Shown here: positions 16,593 to 50,621 of the stretch, in pieces
Numbering within the stretch: the stretch's first letter is position 1
How the letters are laid out: the number at the start of each line of letters is the position of its first letter
Source: Thermodesulfobacteriota bacterium
GTDB lineage: Bacteria > Desulfobacterota_D > UBA1144
Length of the DNA: 64,000 nucleotides
Direction of reading: 5' to 3'
NCBI GenBank assembly: GCA_036340075.1
Contig: JAYYZJ010000004.1
Span: 8,614 to 72,613 of the forward strand
Notes under the pieces: generated by a model
Told to the model about the DNA's origin: nothing
Seen by the model: the letters and a program-made list of their open reading frames with translations, nothing else
Database searches by the model: none
Program-made: the position numbers and the translations under genes

Positions 16593-16606
16593 AACAAGAA
16601 CACTGA

Positions 16607-16721
16607 TTAGGCGGCTACCTACTTTCCCAAAACTTCATGTCTCAGTATCATCGGCCTCTGAGGACTTAACTGCCGGGTTCGGAATGGAACCGGGTGTACC
16701 CCCTCCAGTTTGACCGCCTAA
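16607..16721 (-). rRNA. rrf: 5S ribosomal RNA (unlinked, single copy in window)
   Basis: Minus strand has terminal helix TTAGGCGG..CCGCCTAA, CACCCGGTTCCATTCCGAACCCGGCAGTTAAG, GCCGATGATACT and GGGAAAGTAGG, all typical 5S elements. Confidence 0.95.
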
Positions 16722-42154: not shown

Positions 42155-42937
42155 CTATTGTGTTTCTAAGTCAAAAACCTTTTTCTTTTTTATTTTCTGC
42201 AAACAGAAGCGAGCTAAACTAAATACTAAATAAGAATAGAACAAGACAAATGATCCAATTTCAATATGAGTCAATATGGCTACAGATATTATAGATACAA
42301 TAACTAATGCATTAAATTTTTTCATTTTGTTCAAAAAAGTCTTTTTAGTAAAAATAATATTGCTAACCATTAACATGCCGACTATAGGAAAGAAGACTAA
42401 AAAAATGTTTCGAACAATATCGTTTCCAAATAATGAGAATTTGTAATCAATAAGAATTAATGAAATTATCAACCCTGCACCCATTGGACTTGGTAGACCA
42501 ACAAAAAAGTTCTCTTTTTCATTATGTGATAATGCATTAAATCTGGAGAGTCTTAATGCAACACATACGACAAAAAAAACACAGCACATTATTCCTAATT
42601 TTCCATAATGAGATAGATAAGTAACATAAATTAGAAAGGATGGTGCAAATCCGAAACAAATTAAATCAGAAAGAGAATCGTAATGCATACCAAACTCAGA
42701 ATCTTTATTAAGTAATCGTGCGATCTTTCCATCTATAAAATCTATAAATGCTGATATATATAAAAAAATACAAGACCACCACAAAGGATTTTCAGTTATC
42801 AATTTAGTATCAATCCCTATAAATGAATTATTACCTGGCAAAATTTTTAGAATATTAAATACTGACAACAATCCAAAGCATAAAGAAAAAGTTGTCAAAA
42901 TATTTGGTATAAGAGATATAATTCTTTTATTTTTCAT
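42155..42937 (-). CDS. pssA: CDP-diacylglycerol--serine O-phosphatidyltransferase
   Basis: DFIDGKIAR..SEFG...DSLSDLICFG CDP-alcohol motif, LRLSRFN, FVGLPSP. Confidence 0.9.
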   Translation of the reverse strand: MKNKRIISLIPNILTTFSLCFGLLSVFNILKILPGNNSFIGIDTKLITENPLWWSCIFLYISAFIDFIDGKIARLLNKDSEFGMHYDSLSDLICFGFAPSFLIYVTYLSHYGKLGIMCCVFFVVCVALRLSRFNALSHNEKENFFVGLPSPMGAGLIISLILIDYKFSLFGNDIVRNIFLVFFPIVGMLMVSNIIFTKKTFLNKMKKFNALVIVSIISVAILTHIEIGSFVLFYSYLVFSLARFCLQKIKKKKVFDLETQ

Positions 42938-42938
42938 A

Positions 42939-43586
42939 TCAACCTTCTTTTCTGAATAATATTGTCTCTCCTGCAACAACATTATCGCCCGGCTTTAGAT
43001 TTGTAATATAAGAAGTTGGAACGTGTATGTCGACTCTAGATCCAAATTTAATTATTCCTATTCTATCACCTCTTTCTAAAACTGAACTAGTATTAATATA
43101 ACTAACTATTCTTCTTGCAATAAACCCTGCATATAAAATTAATACATGACTTTCATTATTTTCTGTTTTTAAATGTAAACATAATCGCTCGTTTTCTATA
43201 GCTTTTTCAGAGTTTGCGAAGTGAAATTCTCCATCATGATGAACATGAGCAACAACCGAAGATTTGATTGGAGAACGAGCTATATGAGCGTCAAAAATTG
43301 AAAGAAAAATGCATATTCTGTGCATTTCATTATTAGTAAATTCAGATTCATTAATTTTATCTATGGATATTATTTTTCCATCGGCCGGTGAAATTATACC
43401 TTCTTCGTTTGGTATAATTCTCTCAGGATCTCGAAAGAAATACAGAATAATTAAAAATACTAGAAAAAGAATCAACGATATGAGAGAAAGACCAAAAAAG
43501 GCAGTTCCTAACCAACAAACAAAGAAAGAAGTTAATATTGGTAAATATCCTTCTTTTGCAACTGACCAATTATAATCTATCTTCAT
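42939..43586 (-). CDS. psd: Phosphatidylserine decarboxylase proenzyme
   Basis: FFRDPER, SPADG, KFGSRVD self-cleavage site. Confidence 0.93.
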   Translation of the reverse strand: MKIDYNWSVAKEGYLPILTSFFVCWLGTAFFGLSLISLILFLVFLIILYFFRDPERIIPNEEGIISPADGKIISIDKINESEFTNNEMHRICIFLSIFDAHIARSPIKSSVVAHVHHDGEFHFANSEKAIENERLCLHLKTENNESHVLILYAGFIARRIVSYINTSSVLERGDRIGIIKFGSRVDIHVPTSYITNLKPGDNVVAGETILFRKEG

Positions 43587-44602
43587 TAGTTTTTAGCTTT
43601 GTCTACTAATTTCCTACGAAAAAGAGGTGTCATCATTGATCTCAAAGTTCCTCCAATATCTTCTATTGGATGAGACTCTCCATCTTTTAACAATTTAGTG
43701 TAATTAGGTCTTCCTGCTTCATTCTCGGCAACCCACTCTTTAGCAAAATCGCCATTTTGAATATCTTTCAAAATCTTTTTCATTCTCTCTTTAACATCTT
43801 TATCGATAACAACTGGGCCTCTTGTAATGTCTCCATACTTAGCTGTATCACTAATTGAGTATCGCATATTTGAAATTCCACCTTCATATATTAAATCGAC
43901 AATTAGTTTCACTTCATGACAACATTCAAAGTAAGCCATTTCAGGGGGATACCCAGCTTCAGTTAGTGTTTCAAAGCCGGCAAGTATCAAGCTAGATACT
44001 CCTCCACATAAAACAGTTTGTTCTCCAAATAAGTCTGTCTCTGTTTCATCTTTAAAGGTTGTTTCAATTACACCAACTCTTGCTGATCCAATTCCTGCCG
44101 CATAAGCCAGAGAGATTTCTTTAGTATCTCCTGAAGGATCTTGATTTATAGCAATCAAAGCAGGTACTCCTGCACCATCTTCGTATTGACCTCGAACTGT
44201 ATGTCCTGGCGCTTTTGGTGCAACCATAAATACATTTATATTTTCGTCTGGAATAATTTGCTTATAATGTATGTTAAAACCATGACCAAATGCTAAATAC
44301 TTTCCGGGTGTTAAGTTTTCTTTTATATTTTCTTCGAATATACCTTTTTGGCTCGTATCAGGGGCAAGAATCATAATAATATCAGATTTTTTCACTAAAT
44401 CTTGAACTTCTAGCACTTCTAATCCTGCTGCTACAGCTTTATCCCAACTTTCACCACCTTTTCTTAGTCCAACTGAAACATTTATTCCTGAGTCTTTTAA
44501 GTTTTGAGCATGCGCATGTCCTTGGCTTCCAAAACCAATAATGCCAACATGTTTTTCTCCTAGTAAATTTAGATTACAGTCTTTTTCATAATATACTTTC
44601 AT
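43586..44602 (-). CDS. ilvC: Ketol-acid reductoisomerase
   Basis: [35 protein letters not shown]. Confidence 0.98.
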
Positions 44603-44614
44603 ACTAATTCTCCA

Positions 44615-45097
44615 TTATTTTTTTTCTCTAGGCAGGGAAATTAATCCCGTCCTGGTAACCTCTTTTAAACCTAAAGGTTTTAATTTTTCTAAAAATTCGT
44701 CTACCTGTTCTTTGCTTCCAGAAAACTCTAATGTTAATGATTTTTCTCCAACTTCTAGTATGTTTGATTTGTAATAGCTAGCAGTTTTACTAACTGCAGA
44801 TTGTTTACTTTTATTTGACGTTACTTTCGCTATTACTAGCTCTCTTTGTATACTATTAGTATCAGTAAAATCAGTTACTTTGATAACATTAATCATATTT
44901 TCGAACCTTTTAACAATCTGATCAATTACCCAATCTTCACCAGAAGTTACTAATGTTATTTTAGATAAAGAAGAATTTTCAGTAGGGGCTACGCATAGAC
45001 TTTCTATGTTAAACCCTCTTGCAGTAAATAAACCTGAAATTCTTGCTAAAACACCAGGCTCATTGTCTACTAAAATTGTCAAGATATGACGCACCAA
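44615..45097 (-). CDS. ilvN: Acetolactate synthase small (regulatory) subunit
   Basis: VDNEPGVLARISGLF.ARGFNIESL, C-terminal EVTRTG; SD AAGGAG. Confidence 0.94.
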   Translation of the reverse strand: MVRHILTILVDNEPGVLARISGLFTARGFNIESLCVAPTENSSLSKITLVTSGEDWVIDQIVKRFENMINVIKVTDFTDTNSIQRELVIAKVTSNKSKQSAVSKTASYYKSNILEVGEKSLTLEFSGSKEQVDEFLEKLKPLGLKEVTRTGLISLPREKK

Positions 45098-45153
45098 AAT
45101 CTCCTTTTTTAGAAATAACTATAATAAACTAATTTAAAAGTATTATATAGTAA

Positions 45154-46707
45154 TCAGATTAGAATTTCGATTAGCCTCAAACCCTTGTGAGATAAATGTT
45201 TTTTTAGCTGATTTTTAATATTCTTACCAAGATTTATTGTTACAGATTTTACACCAAAGGATTGGCCCATCATCTTATAGTCTGGATTTTCATGCCCTTT
45301 TCCATTTAATTGAGAATCTTCATTTAAAACTATAATTGTCAAATCTAATTTTTGTTCTCTTGCAACGATTAATTCTTGCATATTAAATTGAAAATTCTCT
45401 CCAGAAGAGATACTGACAACTTTACTTCTAGGTCGAGAAAATTTTGCTCCGATTGCTGCAGGGAAGCCATATCCCGGGGTACCTACCCCTCCCGACATGA
45501 TACTGTTTCTGTAATCTGTAAAATTATAGAATTGCTGTAGATTAACATCTTCATAACTAAAATCGGAACATATTATCGCCTTGTCTCCTAAAAGTTCAGA
45601 CAAAGTTGAGAATATAAATGCCTTTTTGTTTTTAGAAATTATTTTTAATTTGTTTTCAGAATTCTTTTTATGTAATAAACTCAGGTCTTCTTTGTCCCAA
45701 CTAAACTTCATCTTATCTTTCAATCTAGAAAAGGCTTCTAGAAAAAAAGAAGAGTTGGTTAATATGTTCAAAATATTTTTATTATCATTAAGGAACTGCG
45801 TATTGTCTATATTGACGACTACCATTTTCTTTCCATCTAAAGATGATTCTGGGATGATTTTCTTTAAATCACATCCGATTGATATTATTAGATCAGACTC
45901 GTTAATTAAAATATTTGAGGCATAAGAACCTTCTTCCCCAACTAATCCAAAATTATTTTTACTTTTTCCTAAAACACCAAGAGATAGAATTGATGACAAG
46001 GAAGGTATTTTGAAAATTTGTGAAATTTTTTCTATATATTTAGTATTTGATTCAGCACAGCTCCCTCTGCCATAAATTAATAAGGGCTTGTTAGAATTTT
46101 TTAATGCGGATTTGAACTTATTGAAATCTTTTTTTTGTAATTCTGGATTCTCAGAATAATTTTTAAGTTTTACTTTGTTTGGTATCTTAAATTCACTCTC
46201 GCCAATCAAAACATCTTTGGGCATGTCGACAAGTACTGGTCCTTTTCTGCCAGTTGATGATATATGTAAAGCTTCGGCAATAGCTTTTGGTAAATCCACA
46301 GTTTTCCTAACTAAAGTATTATGCTTTGTGCAGGAACGTGTTATTCCAATATGATCAGCTTCTTGAAATGCATCACTCCCCAAGAAAGGTACTGGGACTT
46401 GGCCTGTAAATATTAATACTGGAACTGAATCTATATGAGCTGTGGTTATTCCAGTAACTGTATTAGTTGCAGCAGGTCCAGAAGTACATAGAATAACACC
46501 AGGCAAATTACTGGCTCGGGCAAAACCATCTGCCATATGAGTAGCAGCTTGCTCATGTCTAGTTAATATATGTGTTATTTTTTTTGCATATGATGGCATA
46601 ACATCATAAATTTTTAATACATATCCGCCAGGCAAACCAAATATTATTCTTATTCCAAGCTTATATAATGACTCAAAGAAAAGTTCTGCACCTAGATATT
46701 TTTTCAT
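45154..46707 (-). CDS. ilvB: Acetolactate synthase large-subunit homologue with degenerate FAD and ThDP-diphosphate domains
   Basis: N-terminal FGLPGG, RHEQ, TSGP, GQV, DAFQEAD, PKD conserved; GDG motif reads SGE; first gene of the ilvB-ilvN-ilvC cluster. Confidence 0.85.
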   Translation of the reverse strand: MKKYLGAELFFESLYKLGIRIIFGLPGGYVLKIYDVMPSYAKKITHILTRHEQAATHMADGFARASNLPGVILCTSGPAATNTVTGITTAHIDSVPVLIFTGQVPVPFLGSDAFQEADHIGITRSCTKHNTLVRKTVDLPKAIAEALHISSTGRKGPVLVDMPKDVLIGESEFKIPNKVKLKNYSENPELQKKDFNKFKSALKNSNKPLLIYGRGSCAESNTKYIEKISQIFKIPSLSSILSLGVLGKSKNNFGLVGEEGSYASNILINESDLIISIGCDLKKIIPESSLDGKKMVVVNIDNTQFLNDNKNILNILTNSSFFLEAFSRLKDKMKFSWDKEDLSLLHKKNSENKLKIISKNKKAFIFSTLSELLGDKAIICSDFSYEDVNLQQFYNFTDYRNSIMSGGVGTPGYGFPAAIGAKFSRPRSKVVSISSGENFQFNMQELIVAREQKLDLTIIVLNEDSQLNGKGHENPDYKMMGQSFGVKSVTINLGKNIKNQLKKHLSHKGLRLIEILI

Positions 46708-46722
46708 TTCGATTATTATATA

Positions 46723-47394
46723 TTAATTTTCTTCATTAACTACAAAAGAATAAGTATTAAAAGGAGATAGTGGAGACTCTCTGAAGATTAGCTTATCGTT
46801 ATAATCTAAATCAATATTATGAAGAAATTTAGAACTGGTAACAAAATTTTCATTTCCCACGAAAAGCTCCTGTTTCTTATCCTTTAATATCTCTTTGCAC
46901 ATCTCTCTTCCAGTACCTACAATTGTAGTGTCTTGGAAATCAATGGATGCAAAATTATTTAAATCAATCTTGAAATCATATTCCGAGAGGACTATTTTTT
47001 TTTCTATTTTAGAAAATTTTGCATAAGCTAGATTCTTGTTTTTTAAATCAAACACTACAATTAGATTTTTGTAATTATATTCGCAATTAAACCCATAAGT
47101 TAGAAACGAAGATATTCCATAAACTGGTATTTTTACAAAATTAGCAAAAACATTGGCAGTAGAAATACCTACCCTTAAGGATGAAAGGTTGCCAGGTCCA
47201 ACATTTACTCTAACTTGAGTAACATCTTCTACTTTCATAGATGAAACAAGAAACAATTCTTTAATCATAGGAGACAAGAGTTCACAATGATTTGGTTTTT
47301 TGTTCTTCTCTTCTAATAAAAATAAGATTTCTTTTTCTGATGAAAGGCAAACGCTTGTATTAGTTTGTGAAGTGTCAATATTAAGAGATAACAT
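46723..47394 (-). CDS. tsaB: tRNA t6A biosynthesis protein TsaB
   Basis: NIDTS, H..LL.P.I, VGPGN..SLRVG. Confidence 0.8.
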   Translation of the reverse strand: MLSLNIDTSQTNTSVCLSSEKEILFLLEEKNKKPNHCELLSPMIKELFLVSSMKVEDVTQVRVNVGPGNLSSLRVGISTANVFANFVKIPVYGISSFLTYGFNCEYNYKNLIVVFDLKNKNLAYAKFSKIEKKIVLSEYDFKIDLNNFASIDFQDTTIVGTGREMCKEILKDKKQELFVGNENFVTSSKFLHNIDLDYNDKLIFRESPLSPFNTYSFVVNEEN

Positions 47395-47401
47395 TAAATA
47401 A

Positions 47402-48439
47402 TTAATTCTTTGAAATAATTTTTTTCTTTATTTCTTTTTCCAATTGGTTTGCCAACTTAGTGTTATCTTCTAGGAACTTCTGTGCATTATCTCTTCCTTG
47501 ACCTATTCTTTCATCTGAATAAGAGAACCATGCTCCTGCTTTATCCACGAAACCAAACTCAACACCTAAGTCGATAAGTTCGCCATATCTTGATATACCT
47601 TTTCCAAATATAATATCCATTTCTGCTTCTTTGAATGGTGGTGCCACCTTGTTTTTAACTACTTTGACTCTAACTCTGTTTCCAACAACACTTTCAGTTG
47701 TTTTTATCGATGCAATCCTTCTTACATCAAGCCTAACAGAAGAATAAAATTTTAAAGCATTTCCTCCTGTGGTTGTTTCTGGACTCATATATGCTGGCAC
47801 TCCGATTTTCATTCTAAGTTGATTAATAAAAATTACTGTAGATTTTGATTTTGATACCGTGGCTGTGATTTTCCTTAAAGCTTGAGACATAAGTCTGGCT
47901 TGTCTTCCAACATGCGTATCCCCCATCTCTCCATCTAATTCGGCTTTTGGAGTTAAGGCAGCAACTGAGTCAATAACAACCATATCAACAGATGCGCTCC
48001 TAACTAATTGATCGACGATTTCCAAAGCTTGTTCTCCATAATCTGGCTGAGATATAAGGAGCTCTTCTGTTTTAATTCCTAATCCTTTTGCATATGTTGG
48101 ATCAAAAGCATGTTCCGCATCAACAAAAGCAGTTATTCCACCGTTTTTTTGTGTTTCTGCAATAGCATGAAGTGCTAAAGTAGTTTTTCCTGAAGCTTCA
48201 GGACCATAAACTTCAATTATTCTTCCTCTAGGAAACCCTCCAACACCAAGCGCGGAATCAAGGCCAATAGAACCAGTAGGAATTGAACTAACGTTCTTAA
48301 CCGTAGAATCATCATCATCTAATCTCATTATAGAACCTTTTCCAAATTGTTTTTCTATAGATGAAATAGTTGCTTCAATGGTCTTCTTTTTATCTTTGTC
48401 TGAATCTTTTTCGGGAATTTCTGTTTTTGCTTGTGCCAA
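47402..48439 (-). CDS. recA: Recombinase RecA
   Basis: [34 protein letters not shown] start at 48439 after SD AAGGAG. Confidence 0.98.
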
Positions 48440-48486
48440 AATGTGCTCCTTTTTGATACTATACAGCATTTAACAAATTGTTTCTA

Positions 48487-49734
48487 TCAATTAATTAATT
48501 CTTTTCTAAGTTTATCTAACGCAATCAAGCAAGTTCTCAATTTAATAGATTCTCTATTCCCCGACAATGAATACTTAGTTACTCTAGTGCCTTTTTTAGA
48601 ACTTAATCCAATAAAAACTGTACCAACAGGCTTATCTTTTGTACCTCCAGTTGGTCCAGCAATGCCAGAGATAGCAACTGAAATATCGGTGTTTGATTTA
48701 TTTCTGATATTTTTTGCCATTTCAGAAACTACGTTTTTGCTAACAGCCCCATAAGTCAATAAAGATTTACTCTTAACATCTAATATTGATTCTTTAGCTT
48801 TATTACTATAGGTTATTGCACCAAATTCAAAAAACTTTGAGGATCCTGGCACATCGGTAATCATGCTAGACAACAATCCTCCTGTACATGATTCAGCAAT
48901 AGATATTTTAACTTTCTTTTCTAAAGCAATAAGAACGACATGGTGTGCAAGAGTAATGTTCTCGTCTGTAAAAATAAGGTCTCCCAAAACCTTTCTTATT
49001 TTCTTTTCTGTAGCAAGGGTCTCTTTTTTTGCATCTGACAAAGTATTAGATTGAGTAATTAGCCTTAAATGGATTTCATAATTATAAGGTCTAAAACCTA
49101 TATAGGTTCTTTTTCGTGAAATCTTATTTATTCTTTCCGCAACTTCAGACTCAGGAGCACCAAAAATCTTCAGGGTTTTTGAAAAAGAATAAAGTTTCAT
49201 CTTTTTTTGAACACTTGCTAAATCTTTTAAAAAACTATTTTTTATCATTGAATTAAATTCTTTTGGGACACCTGGAAAGAAATAAAATTTAGTAGAAGAT
49301 TTGGTTAAAGTGAAGCCTGAAGCAGTTCCGTTAACATTATTAATAATAGAGCTACCTTTTGGAAAATAAGCCTGCTTCTTATTCAATGAGCTGTATTTTC
49401 GTTTTCTTTTTGCAAAAAGTTTTTTTATCTTCTCTTCTTCTTTCTTAATAAATATCAATTCTTTGCTAAAATATTCTGATGCTACCTCTCTAGTTAAATC
49501 ATCTTCGGTTGGTCCCAGCCCGCCAGTAATAATTACAAATGATGAACGGGAATTAGCAATCTTAAGAGCTGAAATGATATCGTTTTTGGAGTCTCCCACA
49601 CATTGATGGTAACGAATTTTCAAACCCATTGTGAAAACTTTTTCTGCAATTGAAAAAAAATTTGTATCGAGAGTTGTTCCGCTTAGGAGCTCCTCGCCAG
49701 TGGTTATTATTTCTATATTAGAATCTTTCTTCAT
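48487..49734 (-). CDS. cinA: Competence/damage-inducible protein CinA (MocF-like domain plus NMN deamidase)
   Basis: GEELLSG, TGGLGPTEDD, AESCTGG, SGIAGP..G...KPVG. Confidence 0.93.
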   Translation of the reverse strand: MKKDSNIEIITTGEELLSGTTLDTNFFSIAEKVFTMGLKIRYHQCVGDSKNDIISALKIANSRSSFVIITGGLGPTEDDLTREVASEYFSKELIFIKKEEEKIKKLFAKRKRKYSSLNKKQAYFPKGSSIINNVNGTASGFTLTKSSTKFYFFPGVPKEFNSMIKNSFLKDLASVQKKMKLYSFSKTLKIFGAPESEVAERINKISRKRTYIGFRPYNYEIHLRLITQSNTLSDAKKETLATEKKIRKVLGDLIFTDENITLAHHVVLIALEKKVKISIAESCTGGLLSSMITDVPGSSKFFEFGAITYSNKAKESILDVKSKSLLTYGAVSKNVVSEMAKNIRNKSNTDISVAISGIAGPTGGTKDKPVGTVFIGLSSKKGTRVTKYSLSGNRESIKLRTCLIALDKLRKELIN

Positions 49735-49817
49735 TTATCAATTTAATAATACCTTGAATATACCTTTGTAATGCGTAAACTCTCTTAAATAATAAGTAAA
49801 TTAAGTTTGGAGAAATA

Positions 49818-50621
49818 ATGAAGATAGAAAACTGGCTTGAAGGTCACTGGGCTTTGATTCTGGGTTCCTCTAGCGGATTTGGAGCAGAGGTTTCAATAAA
49901 ACTCTCAGAATATGGAGTTAACATAATTGGGGTTCATCTTGATAGGAAAGGTACAATGAAAAATGTTGAGGACATTGTTGCTAAAATTAAGAGTAATGGG
50001 GTTAAAACGGAATTTTTTAATATCAATGCTGCAGATGAAACTAAAAGAAAAGAATGTTTAGATTCAGCTCTAAAATTAATTGAGAGTTCTGAGAAAAAAA
50101 TTAAAATTCTATTACACTCACTAGCATTTGGATCTTTAAAGCCTTATGTTTCAAGCGATTCCGAAAAAAACGTTACACAAAAGAATATGGATATGACTTT
50201 AGATGTCATGGCTAATTCTCTTGTGTATTGGGCACAAGATGTTCACTCAAGAAATCTTTTTAGCACAAAAGCACGCATCTATGCTATGACGAGTGCTGGT
50301 AGTAGAAAAATATGGCCAACGTATGGCCCTGTCTCTGCAGCCAAATGTGCTCTTGAATCTCATATCAGACAGTTGGCAGTTGAACTTGCACCAAGCGGAA
50401 TAACAGCAAACTCTCTTTGTGCCGGTGTTACTTTAACACCCGCCTTGGAAAAAATTCCAGGCAATGATGCCATCGTAGAAGGAGCATTGAAAAGCAATCC
50501 AAGCAATAGACTAACTTTAACAGAAGATATTTCTGGAAGCATTGTGGCTCTATCTCATCCTGGAGCAGACTGGATAACTGGCAACATAATTAGAGTTGAT
50601 GGTGGAGAAGAGTTATCTTAA
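49818..50621 (+). CDS. SDR family oxidoreductase, enoyl-ACP reductase (FabL/FabI)-like
   Basis: GSSSGFG Rossmann motif, YGPVSAAK (Y-X6-K), VDGG. Confidence 0.8.
   Translation: MKIENWLEGHWALILGSSSGFGAEVSIKLSEYGVNIIGVHLDRKGTMKNVEDIVAKIKSNGVKTEFFNINAADETKRKECLDSALKLIESSEKKIKILLHSLAFGSLKPYVSSDSEKNVTQKNMDMTLDVMANSLVYWAQDVHSRNLFSTKARIYAMTSAGSRKIWPTYGPVSAAKCALESHIRQLAVELAPSGITANSLCAGVTLTPALEKIPGNDAIVEGALKSNPSNRLTLTEDISGSIVALSHPGADWITGNIIRVDGGEELS

Follow-up and report, generated by a model that had tools for sequence, protein, structure and literature searches.

Acetohydroxyacid synthase (AHAS) is a textbook homodimeric enzyme dependent on thiamin diphosphate (ThDP), and a major target for herbicides and antimicrobials. 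Each ThDP site in this class of enzyme lies at a dimer interface, between the pyrimidine-binding (Pyr) domain of one chain and the diphosphate-binding (PP) domain of the other, and in AHAS the flavin adenine dinucleotide (FAD) domain and mobile loop of the second chain, together with its C-terminal arm, also contribute to the site. Some ThDP enzymes carry Pyr and PP on separate chains, among them sulfopyruvate decarboxylase (ComD/ComE), the E1 alpha and beta subunits of the 2-oxoacid dehydrogenases and split transketolases; their origin lies in gene fission or in domains that were separate, and in each tetramer the two sites are both active. Here we describe an AHAS large-subunit homolog, paralog A, encoded between tsaB-like and ilvN genes in a 64-kb stretch of a Thermodesulfobacteriota genome (the window), together with a second homolog, paralog B, encoded on a separate contig of the same genome. 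The active-site losses in A and B are complementary and non-overlapping, and the working AHAS is probably a heteromer for which A and B are both obligatory, each dimer having a single composite site.

Two described systems in which an enzyme depends on an inactive or impaired copy of itself are relevant to such an arrangement. Trypanosomatid deoxyhypusine synthase is reported as one of the 'prozyme' pairs, in which an enzyme relies on a heteromer with a dead or impaired paralog (PMC3663545). In laboratory yeast cytosine deaminase, two copies that are dead as homodimers form a functional asymmetric heterodimer, as reported by Despres et al. (PMC10888846). An AHAS with its active-site halves on two full-length paralogs was found nowhere in the literature searched, most subscription journals lying outside its coverage; the preliminary description of paralog A likewise knew of no account of a split-site AHAS.

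Results

Paralog A has a canonical Pyr half and degenerate FAD and PP domains

The preliminary description had reported an intact open reading frame (ORF) for paralog A, and this was confirmed: the frame opens with ATG and is uninterrupted in 19/19 genomes of the window's family. The motif readings given there are all present in the translation and hold when this is aligned with E. coli IlvI or with yeast AHAS (1jsc). On the Pyr side A keeps FGLPGG, RHEQ, TSGP, GQV, DAFQEAD and PKD, and the six motifs are identical across all 19 A sequences and all 11 canonical enzymes of the same class. Within DAFQE lies the Q-loop pair Phe206/Gln207 (Arabidopsis numbering), which one report describes as invariant, in contact with the substrate and critical for catalysis (PMC9277346).

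Beyond the Pyr domain the landmark motifs are altered. GMHG reads GEEG and RFDDR reads DLKKI in the FAD-type domain; in the PP domain DVGQHQM reads DFSYEDV (DFSYxDV family-wide), GTMG reads GTPG and GDG..NN reads SGE..NE. The GMVRQWQ mobile loop is deleted, as is the C-terminal tail, which forms the lid. The Mg ligand Asp448 (IlvI numbering) is replaced by Gly in 19/19 sequences and Met423 of GTMG by Pro in 19/19, and the second Asn of the Mg motif (Asn475, 27 residues after Asp448) is Glu or Asp in 18/18 readable sequences; the carboxylate of the motif appears to have moved rather than vanished. The glycine-rich diphosphate loop GG-GT-G-G-PAAIGA is retained.

The preliminary description had called this part of the protein eroded. 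That holds for the motifs, which are lost, but not for the domains as a whole, which are under purifying selection (see below) and carry replacement residues that are invariant in the family. Pro423, Tyr425, Asn450, Phe395, Ser396, Lys285 and Ile286 are each present in 19/19 sequences, Lys285-Ile286 being the last two positions of the former RFDDR.

Profile scores follow the same division. The three ThDP-enzyme Pfam domains are found, in order, in both A and B. For A they score 117.5 (N-terminal, PF02776), 47.2 (central, PF00205) and 79.5 bits (C-terminal, PF02775; E = 3.6e-34, 2.3e-12 and 2.9e-22, respectively), for B 58.1, 154.5 and 195.2 bits (E = 9.5e-16, 1.8e-45 and 6.7e-58), and for canonical enzymes approximately 129–139, 167–180 and 187–196 bits. 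The best NCBIfam model for A is TIGR00118 at 402.7 bits, under the cut-off of 538.35, and A falls below every NCBIfam AHAS cut-off. Its best match among solved structures is yeast AHAS (E = 9.7e-73), with 200.5 bits over residues 5–280 and 45.3 bits over residues 374–515.

Paralog B shows the converse pattern to A

The preliminary description had predicted a partner gene at another place, perhaps an IlvB with the reciprocal degeneration. A profile search of the window's own genome with TIGR00118 gave three matches, namely A, B and a further ThDP-enzyme homolog, L003, which is weighed in the Discussion. B scores 624.6–624.9 bits, over the cut-off of 538.35. Outside the Pyr domain it is canonical, with GMHG, RFDDR, DVGQHQMW, GGLGTMGFG, GDGSF...NN, GMVRQWQ and the C-terminal lid all in place, and it thereby provides the second ThDP-binding IlvB, with GDG..NN and RFDDR, that had been anticipated. 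The Asp of its ThDP-Mg motif is present in 15/15 readable sequences and the other positions of the motif in 15–16 of 16; in all 16 sequences the AHAS-specific mobile loop and the lid are unchanged.

The Pyr domain of B has been rewritten at the sites that A retains. In the window's own genome FGYPGG reads FTPLRR and is accompanied by a 3-residue insertion (residues ~23–30), TSGPGATN reads DSSTSGTST and GQV reads CHF; in the alignments the B-type reading at TSGP is DSDT. RHEQ reads GNEQ in this genome and G[NST]EQ across the B family, and DAFQE reads NVFDQ and N[VI]F[DNE][QHT], respectively. The catalytic Glu (Glu51, IlvI numbering) is kept in 15/15 readable sequences and Gln52 in 16/16. Just this Glu, the Gln of HEQ and a Phe remain of the Pyr catalytic residues: the positions lost include the Q-loop Phe-Gln pair, of which the Phe stays and the Gln is replaced by Asp, Asn or Glu in 16/16. 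The main prediction of the preliminary description, a partner with the reciprocal losses, was borne out.

The B family has two features found in none of the canonical relatives, the 3-residue insertion at the former GYPGG site and a conserved extension of ~9 residues near the C-terminus (P-x-G-P-V-P-D-M). Both might be new heteromer contact elements.

Losses and constraint are divided by domain

The pattern was quantified on 19 A, 16 B and 11 same-class canonical (C) sequences, 21 public canonical proteins and E. coli IlvI. Invariant columns, 181 in all, were taken from 33 canonical AHAS, and a column passed as kept in a family if it was retained by 90% or more of that family's 10 representatives (Table 1). 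Outside the Pyr domain A keeps 30 of 108 invariant columns and B 97 of 108; the difference between Pyr and the rest is significant for both (Fisher p = 6e-17 for A and 2e-9 for B). At the FAD and PP motifs B (15–16 of 16) is identical to C, and A is altered.

Table 1. Conservation and selective constraint by domain in A, B and canonical (C) AHAS large subunits
Measure	Pyr	FAD	PP	C-terminal tail
Invariant columns in canonical AHAS	73	39	60	9
Columns kept in A	65	11	19	0
Columns kept in B	36	37	51	9
Mean pairwise identity within A	0.89	0.49	0.66	
Mean pairwise identity within B	0.74	0.85	0.87	
Mean pairwise identity within C	0.88	0.74	0.80	
Mean pairwise identity A to C	0.70	0.21	0.36	
Mean pairwise identity B to C	0.42	0.61	0.64	
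Omega, A	0.014–0.074	0.07–0.19	0.017–0.12	
Omega, B	0.03–0.06 (about 0.10 in deeper pairs)	0.03–0.07	0.01–0.04	
Omega, canonical relatives	0.01–0.08	0.01–0.08	0.01–0.08	

The ratio of nonsynonymous to synonymous divergence (dN/dS, omega) was estimated by the Nei-Gojobori method from unsaturated pairs, with dS of 0.25–0.8. The live halves are constrained like normal enzymes, and the dead halves are relaxed two- to five-fold and still far from neutral. Domain-wise dN/dS had been put forward in the preliminary description as a check on selection for a kept half-site, and the Pyr domain of A is indeed under strong purifying selection. Because omega is far below 1 in every domain of A, pseudogene decay is excluded on this evidence, and purifying selection on the dead domains argues that these too are still needed; most simply, they are kept as structural parts of the dimer. 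Tree-wide codon models also gave omegas far below 1 throughout, in the same ranking, with synonymous sites saturated (tree lengths of 12–32 substitutions per codon); the selection argument is drawn from the close pairs and not from these models.

A and B occur in a family with no canonical AHAS detected

Forty-one genomes were searched: the window's own and 40 relatives, 19 of the total belonging to the window's family and 22 to four other families of the class. Intact A was found in 19/19 genomes of the window's family, which span six genera of marine bacteria and have genomes of ~0.8–1.1 Mb, at 61–100% identity. B was found in 16 of these 19 at 71–100% identity, so that A and B occur together in 16/19. 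No third AHAS homolog besides A and B was detected in any of the 19 family genomes at E <= 1e-60, and on that basis the family has no canonical ilvB. All 22 genomes of the other families (1.2–2.4 Mb) have the canonical enzyme, at 43–46% identity to A, and none of the 22 has a protein of A or B type. In a public protein collection the A clade comprises 17 clusters at 60–100% identity, after which identity falls to about 44%, and the B clade 13 full-length clusters at 75–99%, after which it is at most 57%.

Quick IQ-TREE searches on 53 rows placed A and B each in a monophyletic group (SH-aLRT 100), both emerging among poorly resolved canonical AHAS of the same class; the placement of A in the tree of FAD and PP columns was flagged as a long-branch join. 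The stem branch on Pyr columns is 0.46 substitutions per site for A and 3.63 for B, and on FAD and PP columns 5.88 for A and 0.51 for B. The order recA-tsaB-A-ilvN-ilvC is found in 19/19 family loci. Among 11 canonical ilvB loci of the same class, taken with flanks of 1.5 kb, ilvN-ilvC follow in six and tsaB precedes in six; the full order recA-tsaB-ilvB-ilvN-ilvC is seen in two and a partial order in six more. Because this gene order is shared, A is taken to descend in place from the ancestral ilvB, and B to be a copy that was relocated. The simplest history would be one ilvB duplication on the family stem followed by complementary degeneration, and we infer that this degeneration was neutral.

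A possible evolutionary intermediate, P0137, was rejected and left out of the trees. This 574-amino-acid AHAS is 61% identical to B and carries B's special C-terminal extension; its N-terminal half is canonical and foreign-looking, its C-terminal half is of B type, and it occurs on one contig of 2.3 kb only. A chimeric metagenome assembly is its most likely source.

Genomic context of the two loci

The source genome consists of 963 kb in 12 contigs and is estimated to be 92.9% complete; the G+C content of the window is ~31%. Features discussed in the text are listed in Table 2. The genes beside A had been called normal in the preliminary description, and ilvN and ilvC do exceed the TIGR00119 and TIGR00465 cut-offs. 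ilvN gives a single match in its own genome and adjoins A in 19/19 family genomes. The other branched-chain pathway genes recognized in the genome are ilvD, ilvE and a leuA fragment.

Table 2. Coordinates of A, B and associated features (positions without a contig name are those of the window)
Feature	Position	Strand	Description
Paralog A, AHAS large-subunit homolog, 517 aa	45154..46707	(-)	Intact ORF, ATG start; assigned by Pfam, TIGR00118, motifs and synteny
A, Pyr (alpha) domain, residues 1–185	46153..46707	(-)	Canonical; GLPGG, RHEQ, TSGPAATN, GQV, DAFQE, PKD
A, central (FAD-type) domain, residues 199–324	45736..46113	(-)	Fold retained, FAD motifs gone; PF00205 47.2 bits
A, PP (gamma) domain, residues 390–515	45163..45540	(-)	No ThDP-Mg motif; PF02775 79.5 bits
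ilvN, AHAS regulatory small subunit	44615..45097	(-)	TIGR00119 182.4 bits (cut-off 56.9)
ilvC, ketol-acid reductoisomerase, next pathway enzyme	43586..44602	(-)	NF004017 539.8 bits (cut-off 336); TIGR00465 442.4 bits (cut-off 226.15)
tsaB-like gene	46723–47394	(-)	TsaB TIGR03725 83.4 bits; upstream synteny anchor of A
recA	47402–48469	(-)	Upstream synteny anchor of A
5S rRNA gene	16606–16721	(-)	87.5 bits
Metatranscriptome contig inside A	45509–45659		151 nt, one difference; run X2
Paralog B, 579 aa	G000:C12:5971–7710 (L001:1501–3240)		Separate contig
264-aa ORF downstream of B	G000:C12:7743–8534 (L001:3273–4067)		No NCBIfam match
Paralog of the 264-aa ORF	G000:C5:108145–108837		~36% identity
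L003	G000:C12:185425–187078 (L003:1486–3153)		ORF runs off contig end

A promoter and terminator scan across positions 42900–49900 found 25 promoter-like sites where 29.2 were expected. In four marine metatranscriptome runs, which covered small shares of the window, near-identical short contigs lie over ilvC and ilvN; inside A there is the one contig listed in Table 2, plus a few low-depth bins. Because RNA libraries may contain DNA, these contigs say little about transcription of A.

A leuA fragment lies upstream of B in 7/16 loci. The ORF of 264 amino acids lies directly downstream of B in 15/16 loci, at 57–100% identity, a constant linkage that may have meaning or be incidental. A katG-like catalase-peroxidase gene separates B from this ORF in genus g4 (G004:C3 and G009:C10), and the G009 assembly has many ambiguous bases in the B region. 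L003 also resembles 2-hydroxyacyl-CoA lyase and oxalyl-CoA decarboxylase models. Elsewhere in the 64-kb window, the 5S rRNA gene seems to lie away from those for the large rRNAs, as neither 23S nor 16S gave a match at the gathering score anywhere in the window.

Discussion

From the shared-site geometry of the enzyme class and the reciprocal losses described above, the working enzyme is most likely an obligate A:B heteromer. A, encoded in the ilvB-ilvN-ilvC operon, would contribute the Pyr half with the catalytic Glu, the Q-loop Phe-Gln pair and the pyrimidine pocket, and the relocated B would contribute the C-terminal lid and the loop for substrate specificity, GMVRQWQ, as well as the FAD and ThDP-diphosphate/Mg sites. 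Pairing A with itself would leave the cofactor without an anchor, because A has Gly for the Mg-ligand Asp, Pro for the Met and no lid; a B:B dimer would have no Pyr-side catalytic loops. An A:B dimer would hold one complete site, formed by Pyr of A with PP and FAD of B, and one vestigial site, formed by Pyr of B with PP and FAD of A. It would be regulated by the single IlvN and would bind one ThDP and one FAD per catalytic dimer. We favour the heteromer because it is the sole arrangement that uses all of the conserved catalytic elements. The presence of ilvC, ilvD, ilvE and the leuA fragment indicates that the organism needs AHAS. Binding of A to B, inactivity of the homodimers and the cofactor stoichiometry are predictions from sequence.

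Several observations weigh against this arrangement. B was not found in three of the 19 family genomes (G009, G013 and G017). These absences are likely assembly gaps: in G013 the conserved gene after B is cut by the contig start, in G009 the contig starts within the katG-like gene that in the congeneric G004 sits between B and the conserved downstream gene, and in G017 (80% complete) the gene neighbouring B is also missing. No assembly examined has A and B on the same contig, and their co-residence in one cell is deduced from binning that is consistent across 16 assemblies. The score of B over the TIGR00118 cut-off and its retention of the catalytic Glu would permit an active B homodimer, and the acidic residue at the second Asn of the Mg motif in A, with the retained glycine-rich loop, would permit residual binding of metal or phosphate. 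Finally, when rates in the dead halves were regressed on those in the live halves (16 taxa, 29 branches), their covariation was not significant (Pearson r = 0.19, p = 0.32; Spearman rho = 0.32, p = 0.09).

It is also conceivable that B alone is the AHAS, as a homodimer with a remodelled and working Pyr half, and that A is a non-catalytic scaffold or regulator used, for example, in docking IlvN. The TIGR00118 score of B (624.9 against 538.35), its retention of Glu51 in 15/15 readable sequences and of Gln52 in 16/16, and the position of A next to ilvN are in keeping with this. We nevertheless consider it unlikely, for B has lost 37 of the 73 canonical-invariant Pyr columns, the losses being concentrated in the loops of the active site (GYPGG, TSGP, GQV, the Q-loop and the His of RHEQ), on a Pyr stem branch of 3.63 substitutions per site. 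It would also leave unexplained why the catalytic Pyr motifs of A are invariant in 19/19 sequences, with omega of about 0.02 and a tightness like that of canonical enzymes; a mere scaffold needs no catalytic Glu, Q-loop or pyrimidine pocket. A new function for the degenerate half, which we regard as rather improbable, would have A bind a metal and a phosphate-bearing ligand, or ThDP itself, through a rewired site (Asp448 to Gly, Asn475 to Glu or Asp), or would make the vestigial site of B-Pyr and A-PP allosteric. The residues that have come into the dead domains of A are not random but fixed across the family, A retains its glycine-rich diphosphate loop, omega in the dead domains is far below 1, and the Glu is still there in the dead Pyr half of B. 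However, the residues of A that would hold the cofactor are replaced, the Met of GTMG by Pro and the Gln-His-Gln of DVGQHQM by Tyr and acidic residues, which should repel diphosphate; the loop and lid needed for closing the site are gone. Conserved replacements could equally well reflect how an empty pocket packs and the constraints of an interface, and no ligand can be named.

Far less probable still is that A is a decaying pseudogene, or that a third ThDP enzyme of the L003 type supplies AHAS activity and both A and B are relics. A does lie under every NCBIfam AHAS cut-off, and L003 has intact HEQ and GDG..N motifs and a best NCBIfam match of 418.5 bits to PRK05858, a model named acetolactate synthase. 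Decay is contradicted by the intact ORF of A in 19/19 genomes, at 61–100% identity and with omega of at most 0.19 in every domain, and relic status by the AHAS-specific loop and lid of B, invariant in 16/16. L003, for its part, is below all cut-offs (418.5 against 587), and because its homologs occur at similar distance also in relatives that have canonical ilvB, it is better taken as an older paralog with another role.

Returning to the A:B heteromer, one extension of it would be a natural, family-wide instance of constructive neutral evolution in a core metabolic enzyme, in a lineage otherwise known for discarding paralogs; in its boldest form the vestigial site (Pyr of B, with its Glu, and PP of A, with its rewired acidic residue and retained glycine loop) would have been recruited as a regulatory or cofactor-sensing pocket that talks to the live site. 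We give this extension a low probability. Cofactor economy was also considered, in the form of one ThDP per dimer helping a vitamin B1 auxotroph, and is unsupported: thiC, thiE and thiG are present.

If the heteromer is real, it would be a clean natural example of complexity gained through complementary degeneration, of which the recent demonstration is a laboratory one. It would have stayed fixed over a long period in bacteria subject to strong streamlining, in which an additional gene of 1.7 kb would not be expected to last unless needed. Pelagic Dadabacteria clades show limited or no gene duplication, according to a genomic survey of the marine members (PMC8115339), and the retained A/B pair stands out for that reason; in the main text of the same survey the terms acetolactate, valine, thiamin and branched do not occur. 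The heteromer would also offer a natural single-site ThDP dimer for models of half-of-the-sites behaviour and site-to-site communication. There is in addition a risk to annotation: automated pipelines would enter B as an ordinary ilvB and label A generically as 'thiamine pyrophosphate-binding protein', the exact wording of one database name, and pathway reconstructions would then miss the need for both genes.

Judged by phylogeny and residue content, A and B are AHAS large subunits of which neither alone has the defining residue set. They share with canonical AHAS (IlvB/IlvI/IlvG, TIGR00118, with IlvN) the three-domain ThDP fold, the operon context ilvB-ilvN-ilvC, the phylogenetic family and, presumably, the pathway role; the canonical enzyme, however, is a homodimer with two identical sites, and neither A nor B carries the full active-site set. 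As in ComDE and E1 alpha/beta, the predicted cofactor site joins Pyr of one gene product with PP of another. Unlike the chains of those enzymes, A and B are full-length and retain all three folds, half of the sites are predicted to be dead, and the split is functional rather than physical. Trypanosomatid deoxyhypusine synthase differs in fold, chemistry and kingdom, A and B being bacterial, part of core amino-acid biosynthesis and reciprocal by domain. The yeast cytosine deaminase of Despres et al. (PMC10888846) resembles the A/B pair in having complementary loss-of-function changes in a duplicated homodimeric enzyme. Its changes, however, are single mutations made in the laboratory, whereas the A/B pair would be natural, ancient, much diverged and fixed across a family.

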